Shown: positions 1,835 through 16,843, counted from the stretch's first letter. The stretch is 26,985 bases of DNA from an uncultured Candidatus Saccharibacteria bacterium (GCA_964480905.1 CAYZRO010000001.1:1-26985); one strand, 5' to 3'. The notes: generated by a model from the letters alone, not told the origin. Made by a program: numbers and translations.

Positions 1835-2422
1835 TTATTCTATCTTGATTGTTTTGGCAGTTATTTGTTTAGCATTTATAATTTCTTGGATTAACTCAGG
1901 AATTTTTTTTAGGACTCTGTTAATTTTTTTTCTTTCTTCTAACTTAAATTTATTCAGAACGAAATTTTTTGTTTCTATGCTTTGAAGGGGATTTTGCTTT
2001 TGTGGTTTAGGCCTAATACCTATTCTTAAACGAATGAAATTTTTTGAATTCAGCGCCTTAATAATAGATTCTACTCCTTTATGTCCGGCAGAACTTTTAT
2101 TTATTGAAATTTTAATCGTCCCTAAATCAAGATCGATATCGTCATGGATAACGACAATATCTTGGTTGTTTATTCCATATTGGTTTTTTAACAAGGCAGC
2201 TGTTTGTCCGGAGTTATTCATATAAGTTAAAGGTTTAACTAATATAATGTTTTTCTTAGCAATTCGGCTACTGATATAAAGGTAATGGGCTTTTTTATTT
2301 TTTTTCCAGTTTTTTATTGGTTGGAGTTTTTTTACTAAAAAATCAATCGCCATAAAGCCTGTATTATGTCGTGTTTCTTTGTATTTTATTCCGGGATTTC
2401 CTAAACCAATAATTAATTTCAT
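1835..2422 (-). CDS. pth: Peptidyl-tRNA hydrolase
   Basis: GLGNPG..Y..TRHN.GF, KPLTYMNNSG, HDDIDL and GHKG motifs. Confidence 0.97.
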   Translation of the reverse strand: MKLIIGLGNPGIKYKETRHNTGFMAIDFLVKKLQPIKNWKKNKKAHYLYISSRIAKKNIILVKPLTYMNNSGQTAALLKNQYGINNQDIVVIHDDIDLDLGTIKISINKSSAGHKGVESIIKALNSKNFIRLRIGIRPKPQKQNPLQSIETKNFVLNKFKLEERKKINRVLKKIPELIQEIINAKQITAKTIKIE

Positions 2423-4776: not shown

Positions 4777-4811
4777 CGGTAAGATAAATATTAAAAATAA
4801 TATAATAAGAA

Positions 4812-4819
4812 AAGGAGGT
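4812..4819 (+). promoter_or_regulatory. Strong Shine-Dalgarno site of rpsU
   Basis: AAGGAGGT, 8 nt before the GTG start at 4828. Confidence 0.85.
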
Positions 4820-4827
4820 GTATATAT

Positions 4828-5106
4828 GTGGTCATTGAGGTTAAAAAGAGAAAAACAGAAACAATTAGCAATTTAATTAGGAGATTTACTAGATCTGTTC
4901 AACAAAGCGGGATTTTGATTCAGGCTCGACAGAGGCGATTTTATAGAAAGCCAAAAAATAAAAGAAAGAAAAGAGAAAGCGCTTTACGGCGCCAAGAGAT
5001 ACTTCGTTTGAGAGAAGAATTAACAAAGCAAGGATTGCTGAGAGAGGGAGAAATGATACCAAAAGATAAAATTAAAAAATTAGATGAGCTTAAAGAAAAA
5101 AATTGA
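4828..5106 (+). CDS. rpsU: 30S ribosomal protein bS21 with C-terminal extension
   Basis: IEVKKR..E.ISNLIRRF.RSVQQSGIL...RRFYRKP..KR pattern; conserved HIT-rpsU-yqeY gene order. Confidence 0.88.
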   Translation: MVIEVKKRKTETISNLIRRFTRSVQQSGILIQARQRRFYRKPKNKRKKRESALRRQEILRLREELTKQGLLREGEMIPKDKIKKLDELKEKN

Positions 5107-5593
5107 AGATTCTTTAATAAATGCTTTAAGGACAAAAAATGAGCTAAAGGCTCGTGTTTTGAGGACTCTGAACGCTGTCATTAAAAACAAAGAAATCGAA
5201 AAACGGACGAAGTTGTCTCATAAAGAAAAATTAGCTATTCAGGAATTAACAAAACAAAGTCAACTTTCAGATGACGAAATTTTGAGTATTATTAATGGCG
5301 AGATTAAAAGGCGGAGGGAGGCTGTTGAGGCTTACGAAAAAGCCAAGAGAAAAGATTTGGCTTTGAAAGAGAAGGAAGAAATAGAGGTCCTGAAACAATT
5401 TTTACCTGGACAGCTTTCTCTGGATAGAATAAGAGAGTTAGTTAAAGAAACAGCTCAGGAATTGCAGGCAAGCGGTTTGAATGACATTGGCAAGGTGATG
5501 AGTATTATTATGCCAAAAGTTAAGAATAGGGCTGAAGGAAAAGTGGTAAATCAAATAGTCCGTGAGGAGTTAAGAAAAATAGAGAACGGCTAA
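5084..5593 (+). CDS. yqeY: GatB/YqeY domain protein
   Basis: K.R.EA.E.YEKAKR.DLA.KEKEEI.VL..FLP.QLS and DIGKVM..IMPKVKNRAEGK; ATG overlaps the rpsU 3' end by 23 nt. Confidence 0.93.
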   Translation: MSLKKKIEDSLINALRTKNELKARVLRTLNAVIKNKEIEKRTKLSHKEKLAIQELTKQSQLSDDEILSIINGEIKRRREAVEAYEKAKRKDLALKEKEEIEVLKQFLPGQLSLDRIRELVKETAQELQASGLNDIGKVMSIIMPKVKNRAEGKVVNQIVREELRKIENG

Positions 5594-5637
5594 AAAGTTT
5601 TTTCAAAAAAATAATTTAACAAAGGAATAACAGTTCA

Positions 5638-6093
5638 ATGTTAGAGATAAATAATTTGACTAGGGTAAAAGTAGAGAAATCTTTTTTAAAGAAAACTTTC
5701 CAGGCGGTTTTAGATTTTTTAAAAATAAAAAGACCTTTTGAAGTCAGCTTGGTTTTGGTTGGCAAGGATAGAATAAGGAAGTTAAATAAAAAATATCGAA
5801 ATTATGATAAAGCGACCGATGTTTTAGCTTTCCCCTTTTTTTATTATCAAGAGGGAAAAGAAAGTTTGCCAAAAAGATTTAAACAAGACAATTTTTTGGG
5901 AGAAATAGTAATATGTTTACCTTTTGCCAAAGAGCAATCTTTAAAAGCTGGACATTCATTAAAGAGAGAATTGACTGTTCTTTTTGTTCATGGTATTTTA
6001 CATTTGTTGGGGTTTAATCATGAGTCAAATGATAAGGGAAAAAGTGAAAAGATGAAAGATTTAGAGAAAAGAATTTTAAAAAAATTAAAATAA
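5638..6093 (+). CDS. ybeY: rRNA maturation endoribonuclease YbeY
   Basis: LNKKYR..DKATDVLAFP, LGEIVI and HGILHLLGFNH zinc motif. Confidence 0.96.
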   Translation: MLEINNLTRVKVEKSFLKKTFQAVLDFLKIKRPFEVSLVLVGKDRIRKLNKKYRNYDKATDVLAFPFFYYQEGKESLPKRFKQDNFLGEIVICLPFAKEQSLKAGHSLKRELTVLFVHGILHLLGFNHESNDKGKSEKMKDLEKRILKKLK

Positions 6094-6175: not shown

Positions 6176-7411
6176 TTGTCTAAAAAGCAAATATCAGTTG
6201 GTTTAGACGTTGGTACGAGCAATGTGAGGGTAATTGTCGCTAAGTATAATGAAAGAGATGATAAGCCACAAATTATTGGCGTAGGTCAAGCATTTTCCTC
6301 TGGTATGCGGCGAGGAGCAGTAGTTGATATTGAGGAAGTTGTAAAGTCTATTAGGCAGGCAGTAAAACAGGCTGAACAGACAAGCGGCGTACCCATTGAG
6401 CATGTTTTAGTAAGTGTTGGCGATTGTCAAATAACAAGCCGACCTAGCAAAGGAGTTATTGCCGTTTCTCGGGCTGACGGAGAGATTTCAAAAGAAGATA
6501 TAAGGAGAGTAATTGAGGCTTCAAGGGCAATTTCTTTGCCTCCCAACCGTGAGATTATTCATGTCATTCCTCGGAGTTTTACAATAGATGGCCAAGAAAT
6601 GATTAAAGATCCAGAAGGCATGAATGGAGTTAGGCTGGAGGTTGATACTTTATTAATAGAGGGTTCAATTCCTTTTATTAAAAATTTAACCAAGTGTATT
6701 AATTTAGCAGGTTTAGATATAGATGATTTAGTAGTTTCACCAATTGCTGCTTCCCAAGCCGTTTTGACTAAAAGACAGAAAGAATTAGGCGTTTTGGCTT
6801 TAGATATTGGTGGAGGCACTGTGGGTTTGACAGTTTTTGAAGAAGGCAATATAATACATAGTCAAGTTCTTCCTATCGGAGCGTCTCATATTACCAATGA
6901 TATTGCTATAGGTTTGAAAACAAGTATTGATGTGGCAGAAAGAGTTAAACTGGAATATGGTTCAGTTTTGCCTAATGAGATAAATAAGAAAGAAGTAGTT
7001 GATTTGTCAAAACTTGAAGGGGAAGAAGGAATGGTACCTCGTCGCCATATTGCTGAGATTATAGAAGCGAGAATGTCTGAAATTTTAGATTTAGTTAACA
7101 AAGAACTTAAAAAGATAGATCGGCAAGCGCTTTTGCCAGGAGGAATTGTTTTAGTAGGCGGAGGGGCGAAAACCCCGGGCTTGATTGATTTAACCAAGAA
7201 AACATTAGCTTTGCCAGTTCAAATTGGTTTTCCGACAGAAATAGAAGGTTTAGTCGACAAAGTGGACGATCCAAGCTTTGCTACAGCAGTTGGATTGATA
7301 AAGCCTCAATTTTTTGATCAAAAAGATATTAGAGAAAATGTATCCGAGAGAAAAAGTTTGTCTCAGATAGGTTTTAAAATCAAAAAATGGCTAAAAGGGT
7401 TTTTACCTTAA
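6176..7411 (+). CDS. ftsA: Cell division protein FtsA
   Basis: GLDVGTS, GMRRGAVVDI, LDIGGGT, HITNDIA and GGGAKTPG actin-fold motifs; C-terminal amphipathic helix; TTG start. Confidence 0.98.
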   Translation: MSKKQISVGLDVGTSNVRVIVAKYNERDDKPQIIGVGQAFSSGMRRGAVVDIEEVVKSIRQAVKQAEQTSGVPIEHVLVSVGDCQITSRPSKGVIAVSRADGEISKEDIRRVIEASRAISLPPNREIIHVIPRSFTIDGQEMIKDPEGMNGVRLEVDTLLIEGSIPFIKNLTKCINLAGLDIDDLVVSPIAASQAVLTKRQKELGVLALDIGGGTVGLTVFEEGNIIHSQVLPIGASHITNDIAIGLKTSIDVAERVKLEYGSVLPNEINKKEVVDLSKLEGEEGMVPRRHIAEIIEARMSEILDLVNKELKKIDRQALLPGGIVLVGGGAKTPGLIDLTKKTLALPVQIGFPTEIEGLVDKVDDPSFATAVGLIKPQFFDQKDIRENVSERKSLSQIGFKIKKWLKGFLP

Positions 7412-7449
7412 TAAATAATTTTGAGTTGAAAAGAAATTTTAAATGTAAG

Positions 7450-7479
7450 AAATACAGGAGGGGACTCTTGTATTTTTTT
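7450..7479 (+). terminator. Intrinsic terminator after ftsA
   Basis: aaatacaggag-ggga-ctcttgtattt stem (one G.U pair) followed by a T run. Confidence 0.65.
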
Positions 7480-7565
7480 AAAAAATATATTATTGTGATT
7501 TATTAATCATTAAGTTTCAACTAACATTAATAAGAATTGATATTATTGTTAGTTGAGTATAATTT

Positions 7566-8684
7566 ATGCCTCGGATTAAACCTGAACTTGAAACTTTCGC
7601 TAAAATTAAAGTAATCGGCGTAGGCGGGAGCGGCGGCAATGCTATTACAAGAATGATGGCTTGTAAAATTAAAGGCGTTGATTTTGTTGCTATCAATACG
7701 GACGCTCAGGATCTCCATCATACCGACGCTCCGGTAAAATTACATATTGGTAAAAATTTAACTAGAGGATTGGGCGCTGGTATGAATCCAGAAATAGGAC
7801 GTCAAGCAGCCGAAGAAAATAGGGAAGAAATACACGAGGTAGTTAAGGGGGCAGATATGGTTTTTGTTACCTGTGGATTAGGAGGAGGTACAGGAAGTGG
7901 AGCTTCTCCAATTATTGCTGAGGCGGCTAAAGATGCTGGTGCTTTAACTGTGGCAGTTGTCACTAAGCCATTTTCTTTTGAAGGGATTCAAAGAGCAAGG
8001 ATTGCTGAGGAATCTTTGGGGATTTTAAAAGACAAAGTAGATACCTTAATTACTATTCATAATGATAAATTATTAGGAATAATTGAGAGAAATACTTCTT
8101 TGGCAGAAGCTTTTGGTGTAGTTGATGACATTTTACGTCAAGCGGTTCAGGGAATTTCTGATTTGGTAGTTACCCCGGGTATTGTTAATGTTGATTTTGC
8201 TGATGTAAAAACAATTATGGAGAATACCGGTTCGGCAATGATGGGAATTGGTCGAGCTAGCGGTGAAGAGCGAGCCATAGAGGCAGCAAGAGCCGCTATT
8301 AATTCTCCTTTATTAGAGCTTTCTATAGATGGGGCGCGAGGAGTTTTGTTTAATGTTTGTGGAGGGCCTGATTTGACAATGACGGAAATTAATGAAGCGG
8401 CAAAGGTTATTACTGAATCAATTGACCCTGAGGCAAAAGTTATTTTCGGTGCAGTGACAGATGAGAGTATTAAAAAAGGCGAAATAAAGGTGACAGTTAT
8501 TGCTACAGGATTTAACAATGAGCCGTTTCATAAAAGAAAAGTTGATGGTATAGATGAGGCAGCAGAAGTTGATAGTTCAAAGAAACAGATAAAAAAGAAA
8601 AAAGAAGCCGTTACCACTGTGCCGGTAGAAGAAGAAAAAGATGAATGGGATATTCCTGCTTTTATTCGCCGGAAGATAAAATAA
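7566..8684 (+). CDS. ftsZ: Cell division protein FtsZ
   Basis: [18 protein letters not shown] tubulin signature, NVDFADV, C-terminal DIPAFIRR peptide. Confidence 0.99.
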
Positions 8685-11655: not shown

Positions 11656-13230
11656 ATGGAGTGGGTGAATAAAGCTAATGTTTTCTTTGTTTTGAATCTT
11701 TCATTCATATTTGGTATTTATTTAGGTTCTTTATTTCATTCTCCAGTTATTTGGTTAATTTCTTTAATTTTAGCTTCAGCAAGTATAGTTGTTTTTACAA
11801 TTTTTTTCCGGCAAAGTTTTATAGGTAAATTAATATTGCTTTTTGGCGTAGCTTTTTTAGTTGTCGTTTTTGGTATTTTTCGTTCAGACATAGCTTTTAA
11901 GCATATTGATGAAGATAAGTCAAATAATTTTTTTCTTTATAATGATCAAGGAGAAATTGTTTTTCGGGGGATTGTTAGCAGTGATCCTTTAATTTATTTA
12001 GATCGTGTAAAATATGTTATTTCGGTTTTGCCCGCCAAAGGAGATAATTCAGCGGATCAGCTCCTTCAGGGTAAAATTTTTTTAATTCATAAGAAATATC
12101 CTATTTATCATTATGGAGATTTATTAGAGATAAAAGGTAGATTAAAATCACCCCCGGTTTATCCTGATTTTAATTATCAAGATTATTTGGTTACTAAAAA
12201 AATATATTCATTGGTTTATTATCCAAAAATAAAATTTATTTCCTCTGATGCTTTTTGCCATTTTTCAAGCCAAAAAGGACTAGAGAGAATTTTTATTTGC
12301 TGGCAATACAATTTTTATCAGAACCTTTTTAATTTAAAAAATCAACTTAGGCATTCTTTATTGCGTATTATTTCTCCGCCCGAAGAAGCAATTTTAGGAG
12401 CAATGATTTTAGGCGATAAGCAGAGTTTGTCTTTAGATTTGAAAGACAAACTTAATCGAATCGGCCTACGACATATTGTTGCTATTTCAGGAATGCATAT
12501 TATCATTATCATTACTGGTTTATCTGAAATTTTAATTCTATTCGGACTTTGGCGGAACCAAGCTTTTTATTTCGCTTTGATTGGCATAATTATTTTTATT
12601 TTAATGATTGGCGCTCCCCCCTCAGCTGTACGTGCCGGTTTAATGGGCATTTTATGTTTATTAGCCCAGAAGTTAGGACGACTCAACCAAGCTTGGCGTT
12701 CGGTTATTTTTGTCGCTGTAGTAATATTAATTTTTAACCCCTTATTATTAAAATATGATGTAGGTTTTCAACTTTCTTTTGCCGCTGTTTTGGGTATTAT
12801 ATATTTTAAGCCTTGGTTTGATAAAATTTTGCTTTCTCGTTTTCATTCTAAAATTTTAACATTATTGTCTATGAGTTTAGCTGCTCAAATAACAACTTTG
12901 CCGATTTTAATTTATAATTTCAGCAAGATATCTTTGGTTGCCCCTTTAACTAATATTTTAGTAGTCGGTTTTCTGCCTATTGTGATGGGCTTTGGTTTTT
13001 TAGGAGCTTTTTTTGGTATTTTTTGGACCTTGTTAGGACAAATTTTTGTTTGGCCTTCTTCGCTTTTATTAAATTATATTATGAAAATTGTTGACTTTTT
13101 TTCTTCTTTATCTTTAGCTAGCCTAGAGATAAAAAATATTCATTGGTTATGGTTAGCTGTTTATTATCTGTTCTTGTTTATTCTTTATTTAAAAATTAGG
13201 GAAAAGCCATTGGTTAAACAAATTAAATAA
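11656..13230 (+). CDS. comEC: ComEC/Rec2 DNA uptake channel (DUF4131/OB + competence membrane domains, no nuclease domain)
   Basis: Multi-pass membrane protein; HIVAISGMHI, PSAVRA, GFQLSF and LTNILV motifs. Confidence 0.93.
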   Translation: MEWVNKANVFFVLNLSFIFGIYLGSLFHSPVIWLISLILASASIVVFTIFFRQSFIGKLILLFGVAFLVVVFGIFRSDIAFKHIDEDKSNNFFLYNDQGEIVFRGIVSSDPLIYLDRVKYVISVLPAKGDNSADQLLQGKIFLIHKKYPIYHYGDLLEIKGRLKSPPVYPDFNYQDYLVTKKIYSLVYYPKIKFISSDAFCHFSSQKGLERIFICWQYNFYQNLFNLKNQLRHSLLRIISPPEEAILGAMILGDKQSLSLDLKDKLNRIGLRHIVAISGMHIIIIITGLSEILILFGLWRNQAFYFALIGIIIFILMIGAPPSAVRAGLMGILCLLAQKLGRLNQAWRSVIFVAVVILIFNPLLLKYDVGFQLSFAAVLGIIYFKPWFDKILLSRFHSKILTLLSMSLAAQITTLPILIYNFSKISLVAPLTNILVVGFLPIVMGFGFLGAFFGIFWTLLGQIFVWPSSLLLNYIMKIVDFFSSLSLASLEIKNIHWLWLAVYYLFLFILYLKIREKPLVKQIK

Positions 13231-13267
13231 AAAAGGTAGATCTAATTTGTTTCCGGTCTACCTTTTT
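13230..13267. terminator. Bidirectional terminator between convergent comEC and the antisense gene
   Basis: aaaaaggtaga (13230-13240) pairs with tctaccttttt (13257-13267), giving a U tract on both strands; overlaps the TAG of the minus-strand ORF. Confidence 0.6.
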
Positions 13268-13638
13268 AATATGTTTATTATTTTTTCTTTAACCTCTTTC
13301 ACTCCTTCTCCAGGTTTCCTTACAATGAAATTTATATCACTGGTATGTTTTCTATATCCTTCTTTTTTTCCTTTGGTTGATGATTTTGCATTCAGGAAGA
13401 GTTTTTGTCCTTCTTTATTAATAACGACAAAATCTATTCCTTTTTTCCAATCTAAATATTTATTTCCTTTTGAAAAGTTTATTATTTCCCCCTCACTTTT
13501 CAGCTCTTTTAGAGCTTTTGCTACCATTTTTTCACTTATTATTCCTCTTTCAAGAGATGTTTTTTTTACTTTCTTTAGTATTTTTGTTTTAGGATTATAT
13601 TGAATATATTTTATACTTTTCTTCGCTTTTTTATACAT
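13258..13638 (-). CDS. Small basic hypothetical protein with a PD-(D/E)xK nuclease-like motif pattern
   Basis: Strong SD (TAAGGAGGGT) 5-6 nt before the ATG. Motifs RG..SE..V, D..KGIDFVV and LFLNAKSS. The fold assignment is by eye only. Confidence 0.65.
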   Translation of the reverse strand: MYKKAKKSIKYIQYNPKTKILKKVKKTSLERGIISEKMVAKALKELKSEGEIINFSKGNKYLDWKKGIDFVVINKEGQKLFLNAKSSTKGKKEGYRKHTSDINFIVRKPGEGVKEVKEKIINILKR

Positions 13639-13723: not shown

Positions 13724-14590
13724 ATGAATCTAAAGAATTTTTTAATTCAGAAATACAAGATTATCCTTTTGATGTTAACAGTTGTTTGTTTTTCGATTTG
13801 GCACAATGTCTTTACTCAAAATAATTCTTTGTTGGTAGTTCATTTTTACGACGTAGGCCAAGGCGATGCTATTTTTATTGAAACTCCGACTCATCATCAA
13901 ATTTTAATTGATGGTGGCCCAGACAGTACTATTTTAGAAAAATTAGGTAGAGATTTATCTTTTTTTGACCGTTCACTTGATTTAGTCATTTTGACTCATC
14001 CAGACAGTGATCATTTGAATGGCTTAATAGATGTTTTGCAATCTTATCATATAGATAAAATTATTTATACAGGTATTAAAGATGATTTAGCCGCTTACAA
14101 ATTTTGGCAGGAGCTTATTAAAAAGAAACATATTCCAGTAATTTTTGCCCAGGCGAATGAGAGAATTAAAATAAGTCAAAATTTGTGGATAGATATTCTT
14201 TATCCATTTGAAAATCTGGTTGGTCAATCTTTTAAAAAAACTAACAATACGTCAGTAGTTTGTCGTTTGGTCTTTGGTAAAGATTCTTTTTTATTGACAG
14301 GCGATATAGATATATCAGTTGAAAAACAATTGATAAAATTCTATAATTTAAAATCCAATGTTTTAAAAGTTAGTCATCATGGTAGTAAGTATTCCACAAG
14401 TCAGACGTTTCTGAAAGCAGTTTTGCCTCAAATGGCTGTTATTCCAGTAGGCAGGAAAAATCGTTATGGACATCCTCACCGAGAGACGCTTAAACGTTTA
14501 GAGGGCATTCATTTATTTCGAACAGATATTAATGGCGATATTGAAATTTTAACTGATGGCTATCATTTAGCAGTGAAAACTTTATATTAA
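13724..14590 (+). CDS. ComEC-type metallo-beta-lactamase-fold hydrolase (stand-alone nuclease domain)
   Basis: N-terminal TM anchor; DVGQGDA, LIDGG, THPDSDHLNG, LTGDI, KVSHHGSK, NRYGHPH and RTDINGDI motifs. Confidence 0.92.
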   Translation: MNLKNFLIQKYKIILLMLTVVCFSIWHNVFTQNNSLLVVHFYDVGQGDAIFIETPTHHQILIDGGPDSTILEKLGRDLSFFDRSLDLVILTHPDSDHLNGLIDVLQSYHIDKIIYTGIKDDLAAYKFWQELIKKKHIPVIFAQANERIKISQNLWIDILYPFENLVGQSFKKTNNTSVVCRLVFGKDSFLLTGDIDISVEKQLIKFYNLKSNVLKVSHHGSKYSTSQTFLKAVLPQMAVIPVGRKNRYGHPHRETLKRLEGIHLFRTDINGDIEILTDGYHLAVKTLY

Positions 14591-14674: not shown

Positions 14675-15286
14675 ATGAAAAATAATTCTAATTTACAAAG
14701 AAGATTTGAAGAAAGAACTTTAGTGATTATTAAGCCCGATGGAGTTCAGCGTGGTCTTGTCGGTGAAATTATTTCCCGTTTTGAAAAAGCCGGCTTAAAG
14801 ATGGTCGCTTTGAAAATGGTTTGGCCGACAAAAGAGCATTATAATATGCATTATCCTGACAAACAGGAATATTTAGAAAATTTAGGAGCTAAAACATTAG
14901 AGACTTATCAGCGTTATAAAATTGATGCTAAGAAAGAATTAGGGACTGACAATAAGTTGAAAATAGGCAAAATGGTGAAAAAGTGGTTAATTGCTTCTAT
15001 GAGTTCCGGGCCAGTTATTGCTATGGTTATTCAAGGTCCTCATGCTGTAGAGAGCGTGCGGATGATTACTGGTCCAACCTTACCTGCTTTTGCTCCTCCT
15101 GGCACGATTCGGGGAGATTTTTCAGTTGATTCTCCCGCTTTAGCTAATACAGGCAAAAGAGCGGTGAAAAATATTATTCACGCTTCTAGTAGTTTTGATG
15201 ATGCAGAGGAAGAAATAAAACTTTGGTTTGCCCCGGAAGAAATTCATGATTATCGCCGTGCCGAAGAAGAAATAATGTTTGAATAG
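14675..15286 (+). CDS. ndk: Nucleoside-diphosphate kinase (long form)
   Basis: ERTLVIIKPDGVQRGLVGEIISRFE, PGTIRGDF, NIIHASSS (catalytic His), EIKLWF. Confidence 0.95.
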   Translation: MKNNSNLQRRFEERTLVIIKPDGVQRGLVGEIISRFEKAGLKMVALKMVWPTKEHYNMHYPDKQEYLENLGAKTLETYQRYKIDAKKELGTDNKLKIGKMVKKWLIASMSSGPVIAMVIQGPHAVESVRMITGPTLPAFAPPGTIRGDFSVDSPALANTGKRAVKNIIHASSSFDDAEEEIKLWFAPEEIHDYRRAEEEIMFE

Positions 15287-15312
15287 TTTTTATTTATTTT
15301 TAATTGATTATT

Positions 15313-15321
15313 TGTTATAAT
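15313..15321 (+). promoter_or_regulatory. Extended -10 promoter for the 6S-like RNA
   Basis: TG-T-TATAAT ending about 6 nt before the 5' end of the RNA stem. Confidence 0.65.
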
Positions 15322-15326
15322 AAATT

Positions 15327-15473
15327 TGGTTCTGCTGGTCGAAACCTAGAATAATTTTGGATCAGTTGCGATAGAATGGGAGTCCTATATTTGTTTCCGC
15401 CGTGGCGGGAACGTGCGGACACCCACTTGTGATTAAGCCGAAAGTTTTCTAGGTTAATTCGACAGCAGAACCA
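15327..15473 (+). ncRNA. ssrS: 6S RNA (compact, about 147 nt)
   Basis: Rod structure: tggttctgct/agcagaacca, gtcgaa/ttcgac and acctagaa/ttctaggt closing stems, a central bubble, tggg/ccca, gtcc/ggac and an apical gtttccgc/gcgggaac hairpin. Motifs AGAATGGGAG and GGACACCCACTTG resemble conserved 6S bubble-flanking sequences. Has its own promoter and terminator. No covariance search was run. Confidence 0.72.
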
Positions 15474-15505
15474 CTAAAAAACTTCCCTTGAGGAAGTTTT
15501 TTAGT
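15473..15505. terminator. Symmetric bidirectional intrinsic terminator
   Basis: actaaaaaacttcc-cttga-ggaagttttttagt; 14-bp perfect stem with a U tract on both strands. Confidence 0.85.
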
Positions 15506-15506
15506 G

Positions 15507-15687
15507 TAAAAATGTTTACTATCCTATCTGCGAGCTCAGAGACAAATCCTAAAAAATTTAGGTTAGTTCCGAAAAATTTCGGAACAGAGGTCGGCATTTG
15601 CCGATTGCCTCTGACGAGGGCTATGATAAAACTTAGGAGGGGTCGTTTTACCAAAACCACTCACAGATAGGATAGTGAGCATTTTTA
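15507..15687. other. Unassigned structured element (ncRNA or MITE-like), 181 bp, with 28-bp terminal inverted repeats and at least four internal hairpins
   Basis: 15507-15534 pairs with 15660-15687 (25/28 Watson-Crick). Internal hairpins: cctaaa/tttagg, gttccgaa/ttcggaac, cagagg..tcggc/gccga..cctctg and gtttt/aaaac. Confidence 0.6.
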
Positions 15688-15699
15688 AAGTGATAGTTT

Positions 15700-15727
15700 A
15701 ATATAGCAACTTTAACTTATTTGTCAA
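15700..15727 (-). promoter_or_regulatory. Putative minus-strand sigma70 promoter pointing into the structured element
   Basis: TTGACA (15727-15722), 16 nt, TATATT (15705-15700), preceded by TGn. Confidence 0.55.
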
Positions 15728-15748
15728 GATTTTAAAACATGTTAAGAT
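15721..15748 (+). promoter_or_regulatory. Putative promoter of dprA-topA
   Basis: TTGTCA (15721-15726), 16 nt, TAAGAT (15743-15748), with TGn extension. Confidence 0.45.
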
Positions 15749-15757
15749 AAAACAAAT

Positions 15758-16843
15758 ATGGAAGAAAAATTTTTTAATGCCTTTAACCAAATTAGTCAGA
15801 TAGGCCCGATTAGATTTAAAAAATTAATTTCTTATTTTAATAATTTAGAAAGAGCTTGGCAGGCAAGTTCTGCTGAATTGGAAAAAGCCGGGATTGAGAA
15901 AAACGTAGTCAATGAGATTATCGCTAAAAGGCCTTTAATTAATCCGGACAGAGAAATGGAAAAAGTAGATAAATGCGGTTTAAAGATTTTAACTATTAAA
16001 AATAAAAACTATCCGGCTTTGCTTAAAGAGATTTACAATCCGCCAGCCATTCTTTATTATAAAGGGACTTTACAAGGACTTAATGATTTTAATTTAGCTA
16101 TTGTTGGCACTCGTCGTCCTTCAAAATATGGTCAGCAAGTAGCTATTCAGTTAGCACGGCAATTATCAGAAGCTGGTTTTAATATTATTAGCGGTTTAGC
16201 CCAAGGCATAGATAGTTATGTTCATCAAAGCGTTGTAGAAGGAGGAGGACGAACAATAGCGGTAATAGGTTCCGGATTAGACTATCAAAGTATTTATCCT
16301 GCTTTTAATCGAAGATTAGTTGATAAGATTATTGATAAAGGCGTCGTTTTAACTGAATATCCTGTTGGCACACCGGCTTTATCATTTCATTTTCCTGCCC
16401 GCAATAGAATTATTTCTGGATTAAGCCAAGGCGTTTTGGTTATTGAAGCAGGCGAGAAAAGTGGGGCTTTGATTACAGCTAAATACGCTTTGGAGCAGAA
16501 TCGTGAAGTATTTGCTGTTCCTGGTTCAATTTATAATCCTTTTTCTCGAGGTTCTAATAATTTAATCAAACTCGGCGCTAAACTAGTGAATCAAGCTCAG
16601 GACGTTCTTGATGAATTTAATCTTAATTTAGCAATAAAAGAGAGAAATAGTGATGATTATTTTCCTGAAACTACTGAGGAAGCTATTTTATTAAAGTTAA
16701 TTAGTAATGAACCTGTCCATATTGACAAATTAATTCAAAAGAGTAATTTAGGCACAGCTGTTGTTAACAGAACTTTAATTACTATGGAAATGAAGGGGAA
16801 AATAAAAAACTTAGGAGGCAATCAATATGTTTTAAGTCATTAG
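15758..16843 (+). CDS. dprA: DNA processing protein DprA (Smf)
   Basis: YPALLKEIYNPP..LY.KG, AIVGTR, IISGLAQGID, FPARNRIISGLS, SGALITA; C-terminal winged helix. Confidence 0.97.
   Translation: MEEKFFNAFNQISQIGPIRFKKLISYFNNLERAWQASSAELEKAGIEKNVVNEIIAKRPLINPDREMEKVDKCGLKILTIKNKNYPALLKEIYNPPAILYYKGTLQGLNDFNLAIVGTRRPSKYGQQVAIQLARQLSEAGFNIISGLAQGIDSYVHQSVVEGGGRTIAVIGSGLDYQSIYPAFNRRLVDKIIDKGVVLTEYPVGTPALSFHFPARNRIISGLSQGVLVIEAGEKSGALITAKYALEQNREVFAVPGSIYNPFSRGSNNLIKLGAKLVNQAQDVLDEFNLNLAIKERNSDDYFPETTEEAILLKLISNEPVHIDKLIQKSNLGTAVVNRTLITMEMKGKIKNLGGNQYVLSH

Follow-up and report, generated by a model that had tools for sequence, protein, structure and literature searches.

The window analysed here, the whole of a 26,985-nucleotide (nt) stretch of DNA from an uncultured Candidatus Saccharibacteria bacterium (GCA_964480905.1, CAYZRO010000001.1:1-26985), contains, in this order, nrdD, a nrdG-like radical SAM gene, comEC, a pair of unknown open reading frames (ORFs), a separate metallo-beta-lactamase (MBL) ORF, ndk, a hairpin RNA on the plus strand (15330-15476), a terminator, the 181-nt element that is our subject (15507-15687), dprA and topA. 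A sequence-only reading of this DNA had proposed the element as an undescribed non-coding RNA (ncRNA). That call is borne out by covariation among relatives, a single copy at a conserved position and the lack of any match in Rfam, and we regard it as very probable that the element encodes, on its minus strand, a conserved stand-alone structured RNA of a new family. How this RNA might act is a more tentative matter, on which the one nearly invariant loop of the family bears most directly.

The outline of the element had been described accurately. Inverted repeats of 28 nt (15507-15534 and 15660-15687), complementary at 25 of 28 positions (89%), enclose 125 nt and occur once in the window; both ends of the element are TA. 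Its GC fraction, 0.398, exceeds that of the whole window (0.328) and of the flanking spacers (0.20-0.26), a purine-rich linker, taggagggg, lies at 15633-15641, with AGGAGGG from 15635 on the plus strand, and the four internal hairpins recur in predicted folds. The minus strand folds at -80.0 kcal/mol (z = -11.1 against dinucleotide shuffles) and the plus strand at -71.5 kcal/mol (z = -9.4); none of 200 shuffles folded as well as the element. Two ORFs of 68 and 60 amino acids (aa) run across it (15454-15660 and 15488-15670), which we rejected as coding because substitutions in the element are compensatory and indels are frequent.

Signals for transcription of the minus strand lie on both sides, as had been suggested. 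Upstream is a near-consensus sigma-70 promoter matching 11 of 12 consensus positions, with a -35 hexamer, TTGACA (15722-15727), a 16-nt spacer and a -10 hexamer, TATATT (15700-15705), extended by a preceding TG; equivalent promoters are found upstream of homologues. Transcription would start near 15693, about 7 nt downstream of the -10 hexamer. At the other end a symmetric hairpin with a U run on both strands (15474-15504; -20.6 kcal/mol on the minus and -19.4 kcal/mol on the plus strand) forms a predicted bidirectional intrinsic terminator, common to the element and the convergent RNA at 15330-15476. A paucity of G-C pairs in its stem probably explains why a simple terminator scan did not pick up this hairpin. 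From the presumed start to the U run past the terminator, the predicted primary transcript covers 15468-15693 on the minus strand (about 225 nt) and folds at -101.6 kcal/mol with the architecture of the element unchanged. A stand-alone RNA of roughly 190-225 nt with its own promoter and terminator is thus predicted, much as the sequence-only reading had it.

Homologues were sought in 167 non-redundant dprA-anchored loci (numbered with the prefix L) from genome and metagenome collections, a sample that is biased to dprA-linked copies and covers no copies elsewhere in genomes. The conserved letters, CCCTCCT and short junction motifs, are too few for pattern scans, giving one chance match per 10^7-10^8 bases. 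The first homologues, in L002 (Parcubacteria GW2011_GWF2_39_13b) and L005, were found with nhmmer and by eye, and L012 followed; with the window sequence alone nhmmer returned only a weak partial match to L002, and a trimmed profile of four sequences was required. MAFFT and RNAalifold misaligned the arms of the raw sequences because of an insertion in the window copy, and the seed was built instead from trimmed sequences and a voted structure. Two covariance models were made, R1 from a seed of 6 sequences and R2 from 26. R1 gave 18 + 9 matches and R2 gave 29-30 among the 167 loci, with R2 scores of 30-90 bits. In the window, scanned with R2 and filters off, the element scored 68.1 bits on the minus strand and 15.1 bits on the plus strand, and everything else scored at most 12. 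The family-conserved core (inner P1, three-way junction, P2/P2a arm and P3 arm) spans 15519-15676 on the minus strand, at 70.5 bits with R1 and 68.1 bits with R2 (E = 1e-15, a rough value, as the E-values come from a short calibration).

All copies in the family lie on the strand opposite to dprA, one per locus, most of them less than 1 kb upstream of dprA and usually between pth and dprA. They come from Patescibacteria-type loci, with hosts labelled as Patescibacteria group, Paceibacterota, Buchananbacteria, Falkowbacteria or Parcubacteria, and none of the copies in the 167 loci comes from a locus labelled Chloroflexi or Dehalococcoidia; a few automated labels of metagenome-assembled genomes among the hosts (Gammaproteobacteria, Bdellovibrionales, Saccharibacteria) seem unreliable. 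The best DprA relatives of the window are 52-58% identical, and those with named sources come from Parcubacteria or Patescibacteria. Neither the window, the element nor three homologous loci matched a family in Rfam 15, which at gathering thresholds and at E <= 10 returned just chance microRNA-type matches on the long hairpin. The literature searched, on ncRNAs of Patescibacteria and Parcubacteria, on structured RNAs across bacteria and from the Breaker-lab surveys of GC-rich intergenic regions (GC-IGR), contained no description of the family.

When ten members are folded singly they share one architecture, a core of about 115 nt built around a three-way junction. P1, of 12-30 bp, closes the core with almost invariant A-U, G-C and Y-R pairs beside the junction. 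The first arm consists of P2 (consensus GGYN/NRCC) and P2a, which is capped by a loop of 11-13 nt; in about 60% of members the internal loop between the two helices has GAA(AG) on its 5' side and (G)AGUA on its 3' side. By its orientation this GAA/AGUA loop would match a sarcin-ricin/loop-E module, of which the window copy has no clear version (UUUGG/AUAG). P3 is a long variable hairpin, joined to P2 by J2/3 (consensus YAARU) and to P1 by the 1-2 nt of J3/1. The most conserved feature lies in the P2a loop, where 27 of the 29 aligned homologues have exactly CCCUCCU; the remaining two keep CCUCC (CCUCCUU and ACCUCCU), and the heptamer is predicted to be unpaired in single-sequence folds.

The helices covary strongly in the regions upstream of dprA in relatives, the comparison that the sequence-only reading had proposed. 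In the alignment of 29 sequences, standard pairs form in 89.7% of cells; sliding the 3' partners by 1-3 columns within that alignment, as a control, lowers this to 37-46%. Changes on both sides occur in 293 cells (51-90 in the slid controls), and the covariation score reaches 0.679 (0.08-0.15 in the controls). Compensatory change is present in 38 of the 40 pairs of this alignment. Within P1, the 16 modelled pairs are 94% paired and 14 of them change on both sides; P2 (helix 2) is 83% paired with both-side changes in 4/4 pairs, P2a (helices 3 and 4) 82-89% paired with 6/6 pairs covarying, and P3a (helix 6) 92% paired with 4/4; all ten P3 pairs covary. RNAalifold, run on the model-fitted alignment, arrived at the identical three-way junction, and 35 of its 37 pairs are compensated. 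A pseudoknot between the loop and P3 was also considered; the covariation of P3, next to a loop that does not vary, led us to reject it.

In the window copy all of these parts are on the minus strand. The 5' strand of P1 is the right-hand terminal repeat (15660-15687; fold and inverted repeat) and its 3' strand the left-hand one (15507-15534; fold, inverted repeat and covariation). P2 pairs GGUU (15655-15658; fold and alignment), followed by UUUGG in place of the usual family linker GAAA or GAAG, with AGCC (15619-15622; fold, alignment and covariation), preceded by AUAG where the family consensus is GUAG. P2a (15624-15653; folds and covariation) has a 9-bp stem and a 12-nt loop that presents the heptamer CCCUCCU, aligned at 15635-15641 (AGGAGGG on the plus strand), with the anti-Shine-Dalgarno core CCUCC. 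The two strands of P3, UCAGAGGCAA (15605-15614) and UUGUCUCUGA (15536-15545), are supported by folds and by covariation, its compensatory pairs including UCAGAG/CUCUGA here, UCAGGG/CCCUGA in L002 and UUAGGG/CCCUAA in L005. Within P3 the alignment reveals a lineage-specific insertion of two extra hairpins, UCGGCAAAUGCCGA and GUUCCGAAAUUUUUCGGAAC (15566-15604), which the covariance model treats as a 57-nt insertion and which most homologues lack; the apical hairpin P3a (CCUAAAUUUUUUAGG, 15548-15562; folds, helix 6) has a U-rich loop.

The strand had been left open earlier, since the mismatches of the terminal stem read as G.U wobbles more often on the plus strand. For this copy the count is correct, with two T.G on the plus strand and one C.A, but both T.G pairs sit in the outer stem, a part that relatives do not conserve, and the family-wide count favours the minus strand: in minus orientation the helices contain 163 G.U or U.G against 22 A.C or C.A, and 108 against 14 in non-seed sequences. 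At least 16 of 26 copies have a TTGACA-N16-18-TAnnnT promoter on the RNA strand at a consistent upstream distance, and homologues end either in a U tract right behind P1 or in a separate terminator hairpin. The wobble counts, the relatives' promoters and the model score (68 against 15 bits) together settle the strand as minus.

The conserved heptamer directs attention to Shine-Dalgarno (SD) usage. A strong SD is present in 1 of 25 window genes, rpsU, and 21-24 of the 25 have none; across the loci examined about 14% of genes have an SD-like motif. The rpsU gene (bS21; 4828-5106, plus strand) has an extended SD, AAAAGGAGGUG, in its upstream region (4803-4827) and a GUG start, and two of three distinct relatives (L174:380-400 and L176:380-400) combine GGAGGUGA with GUG. 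In Bacteroidia the anti-SD is sequestered and rpsU is autoregulated via its own SD (PMC9976891, PMC7797042, PMC13000453); by analogy, the rpsU pattern in the window and its relatives appears to mirror this bS21 autoregulation. Pairing of the loop with the dprA leader was considered and rejected, given that 25 of the 27 loci show no SD at dprA.

Same-strand genes whose start lies no more than 200 nt downstream of the RNA depart from this background: 8 of 11 have an SD-like motif, against 20 of 198 others (Fisher p = 5e-6). The small ORFs led by strong GGAGG sites are L094:822-1016, L058:2591-2785, L168:502-696, L017:2073-2369, L099:397-717, L165:1772-2110, L016:2210-2638 and L160:1874-2161. They are heterogeneous; among them are 64-aa proteins that are related to each other and have two predicted hydrophobic segments, and a family of 98-106 aa; no Pfam domain was found in genes downstream of the RNA on its strand. 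Of the 5' regions in the window, that of rpsU is predicted to form the best duplex with the loop (-14.2 kcal/mol), and AAGGAGGG, a perfect 7-nt complement of the loop, stands 7 nt before the ATG of a minus-strand ORF (13258-13638). This ORF, of 126 aa, overlaps a plus-strand ORF (13247-13603) between comEC and the MBL ORF; it has only weak wHTH/DUF234 matches, and its overlapping partner has no Pfam match.

We propose that a rigid three-way-junction scaffold presents the CCCUCCU loop, with the CCUCC core of the anti-SD of 16S rRNA, and that this loop would pair with GGAGG ribosome-binding sites, so that translation initiation would be blocked or tuned. Few targets would be expected, because the lineage rarely uses SD sites. 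In relatives the RNA would act in cis, on the gene that directly follows it on its own strand; no same-strand gene follows the RNA in the window genome, and because of this the RNA would act there in trans on a few mRNAs with strong sites, rpsU (4828-5106) and the minus-strand ORF at 13258-13638 being the candidates. The loop is likely to be the working part and GGAGG sequences its partner, as judged from the invariant CCUCC loop, the SD-poor lineage, the rpsU SD, the SD enrichment downstream and a second hairpin with a CCUCC loop (described below). The full mechanism, anti-SD-like pairing that acts in cis in relatives and in trans here, is a proposal to which we give appreciable but less than even credence. 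For RNA-gene identity and anti-SD pairing taken as one claim, our compromise estimate is evenly balanced between acceptance and doubt.

Several points weigh against this reading of the RNA gene and its mechanism. The promoter, the ends and the expression of all members are predictions, and the target predictions come from one 27-kb window. Since every SD is by definition a complement of CCUCC, targets cannot be told from complementarity alone, and SD usage is much the same in loci with the RNA (13.8%) as in low-GC loci that lack it (14.8%). The covariation counts come from an alignment fitted to the model and are somewhat inflated by this, although the slid controls use that alignment too. Finally, a junction with conserved nucleotides and a loop-E-like module exceeds what a small RNA (sRNA) that pairs through a seed would need, and hints at a protein or ribosome partner.

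The Patescibacteria (Candidate Phyla Radiation) make up a large share of bacterial diversity and are almost all uncultured, and in the literature searched we found no published descriptions of their ncRNAs beyond the universal ones. The family would be a well-supported, phylum-specific structured RNA whose sole invariant feature contains the ribosome's mRNA-recognition sequence. SD sites that are rare yet strong, on rpsU and on genes downstream of the RNA, may offer a handle on the control of initiation in reduced, SD-poor genomes, and a covariance model would label an intergenic region that is now blank or miscalled as small ORFs, which in the window are those of 68 and 60 aa.

An unlikely but serious alternative to pairing with mRNA is that the RNA serves as a ribonucleoprotein scaffold or decoy, its CCCUCCU mimicking the 3' tail of 16S rRNA and titrating a factor that recognises this tail (the bS21/bS18/bS6 pocket, YbeY or a maturation factor). 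The architecture is elaborate and conserved, its loop-E-like GAA/AGUA module being a typical protein-binding platform, and a promoter of consensus strength suggests an abundant, housekeeping-type RNA. An SD-poor lineage with an extended rpsU SD and a GUG start also fits the signature of Bacteroidia, where bS21 together with bS18 and bS6 sequesters the anti-SD (PMC7797042, PMC9976891). However, no gene for a protein partner is consistently adjacent, the neighbours being pth, dprA and topA; the loop lies within a hairpin and is not a free 3' tail; and the SD enrichment on directly downstream genes would be left unexplained.

A further possibility, improbable though not remote, is a trans-acting mimic of the anti-SD tail in a translation-control circuit of an SD-poor phylum, which would either compete with ribosomes for the few SD-bearing mRNAs, rpsU/bS21 foremost, or titrate the proteins that sequester the anti-SD. 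In either version such a mimic would set how 'SD-blind' the ribosome pool is, and would be an RNA-based counterpart in Patescibacteria of the bS21 autoregulatory loop of Bacteroidia.

More doubtful, though still a serious rival, is the reading that the RNA is primarily a cis-regulatory 5' leader (a riboswitch, an attenuator or an SD-sequestering element) of a small same-strand gene, with the window copy an orphan whose gene has been lost. In 11-15 of the 30 loci a same-strand ORF does begin no more than 200 nt past the RNA, 8 of the 11 that were counted being SD-like in a lineage where this is rare, and P1 followed by a U tract could form a conditional terminator. The two loop variants go with a matching downstream SD: CCUCCUUA is paired with UAAGGAGG in L168, and CCUCCUU with AAGGAGG in L016. 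Yet at least half of the loci, the window included, have no same-strand downstream gene, with a terminator and a convergent gene instead, and no such ORF exists wherever pth is convergent. The downstream genes share no common family or Pfam domain, unlike riboswitch regulons, and the RNA is equally conserved where it stands alone.

The remaining readings question the nature of the element itself. Very improbably, the plus strand would be the functional one, a structured element upstream of dprA showing the SD-like AGGAGGG as a ribosome standby or decoy site or as a regulator of dprA. Two of the three stem mismatches of the window copy are G.U on that strand, which also folds well, and the element lies 70 nt upstream of dprA in a conserved association. 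Against it stand the wobble counts, the model scores and the location of promoters and U tracts on the minus strand; in addition, a promoter-like plus-strand site for dprA lies at 15721-15748, downstream of the element, and other genes separate the RNA from dprA in L002, L009 and L020.

Just as improbable is a divergent 6S or other RNA-polymerase-binding RNA, paralogous to the neighbouring 6S-like RNA. With 6S RNA (ssrS, RF00013) the element does share a similar length (about 180 nt), a long terminal helix that joins the ends and a strong constitutive-type promoter before a stand-alone gene, and it adjoins a 6S-like hairpin RNA. The Rfam 6S model matched neither the whole window at gathering nor 15200-15800 or L012:5660-5840 at E <= 10. 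The 3' side of the junction is only 1-2 nt long, so that a three-way junction stands in place of the two-sided central bubble that mimics an open promoter, and the conserved nucleotides, CCCUCCU and GAA/AGUA, are unrelated to 6S features.

We practically dismiss a miniature inverted-repeat transposable element (MITE) of IS630/Tc1 type, resembling Correia or RUP, and a retron msr-msd RNA: TA-flanked 28-nt terminal inverted repeats around about 125 nt recall the former and long terminal pairing as in retron a1/a2 the latter, but the element is present once in the window (filters off) and once per locus in about 30 loci, in a position fixed relative to dprA and conserved across species whose DprA proteins are 44-58% identical, its repeats diverge in sequence while covarying as an RNA helix (14/16 P1 pairs), it has its own predicted promoter, and no transposase or reverse transcriptase was found among the screened window ORFs of at least 90 aa or among the neighbours in relatives. 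Pfam scans of window ORFs and of those neighbours gave pth, ndk, dprA, topA and small ORFs of no assigned family. Rfam also gave no match to a self-cleaving ribozyme (hammerhead, HDV, twister, pistol or hatchet), a class that we reject as well; the plus-strand sequence CUGACGAG at about 15611-15618 is on the non-RNA strand and is variable among homologues.

Known RNAs offer partial parallels to the anti-SD-like pairing that we favour and to the fold. In topology alone the family recalls 5S rRNA, in which a closing helix and two arms meet at a three-way junction: the core is about 115 nt, the first arm has a loop of 12-13 nt and the second a small one, and one arm carries a loop-E-type internal loop. 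P1 is two to three times longer, however, the conserved 5S loop sequences are absent, the loop-E-like motif lies in the other arm and Rfam gave no 5S match at E <= 10; the likeness is one of shape only, with no evidence of homology. Like the raiA motif RNA, which adjoins the competence gene comFC, the family is a lineage-specific orphan, a structured RNA that stands alone, is conserved and covaries; it differs in its fold, its phylum and its much smaller core, and it has no match to the Rfam library, assumed to include the raiA model. Among the sRNAs of Gram-positive bacteria, RsaE, FsrA, RNAIII and the pneumococcal csRNAs bear C-rich motifs complementary to SD sites and are thought to occlude ribosome-binding sites (PMC4152353). 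Like these RNAs (RsaE also under the name RoxS), the present one is a small RNA with its own, here predicted, promoter and an intrinsic terminator, and has a C-rich motif complementary to the SD, predicted to be unpaired in the P2a loop. The csRNAs have several paralogues and control competence; here there is a second CCUCC-loop hairpin in six loci, and the neighbours include comEC and dprA. Unlike RsaE and the csRNAs, with which it shares no sequence or structure homology and, given no Rfam match, only a functional analogy, this RNA has a covarying three-way junction, a closing helix of 12-30 bp and mostly a loop-E-like module, and so is more elaborate; it also bears one invariant heptamer in a single hairpin loop, in an SD-poor host lineage.

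The surroundings of the RNA differ between the window and its relatives. The rest of the window contains rplU, pth, lepB, hisS, HIT, rpsU, yqeY, ybeY, ftsA and ftsZ, together with genes for an ABC ATPase, a cobW-like protein, a ferredoxin, a GT2 glycosyltransferase and an M50 peptidase, and rpsL and rpsG. In relatives the convergent neighbour of the RNA is pth (in 9/10 tested loci, plus L002, L005 and L012), which is its ancestral neighbour. The pth gene of the window lies 13 kb off (1835-2422, minus strand), beside lepB and hisS, and the genome is thus rearranged relative to the common order pth-RNA-dprA-topA. The dprA linkage can be broken by insertions, too: in L009 (also L010) two IS200/IS605 Y1-transposase genes (5268-5861 and 7169-7717) flank dprA, and the RNA lies 5 kb upstream, beyond mfd. 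In the window comEC itself is seemingly split into a Competence/DUF4131 ORF (11656-13230) and the MBL ORF (13724-14590), both on the plus strand and separated by about 500 nt in which the unknown ORF pair lies.

The sequence-only reading had paired the element tail to tail with a 6S RNA. A convergent hairpin RNA and a shared terminator are indeed present in the window, but the arrangement is not conserved in relatives, where pth usually takes that place. The convergent neighbour (15330-15476, plus strand) is a 147-nt long-hairpin RNA (-69 kcal/mol) that resembles 6S in outline only; the Rfam 6S search of 15200-15800 at E <= 10 left it without a match and nhmmer found no homologue in 173 loci, and the 6S label is unproven.

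Six loci contain, on the strand opposite to dprA and just upstream of the first RNA on that strand, a second RNA-like element, a long hairpin some 100 nt in length with UCCUCCUU at its apex (L099:~980-1090, L017:~2780-2890, L015:~2790-2900, L014:~2760-2870, L019:~2668 and L018:~597). It lies between the promoter of the first RNA and dprA, in a subclade in which the first RNA has a short P3. The sequence of its stems varies among loci with pairing kept, and C.A mismatches on the dprA strand in L099 are G.U on the opposite strand. In L002 (1790-1880, plus coordinates) a further long hairpin (GCGCGAACUUUCUGUCCGCUAUUCCA...UGGAAUAGCGGACAAAAGUCCGCGC), which may be an additional structured RNA, lies between the RNA's promoter and an inserted 160-aa ORF.

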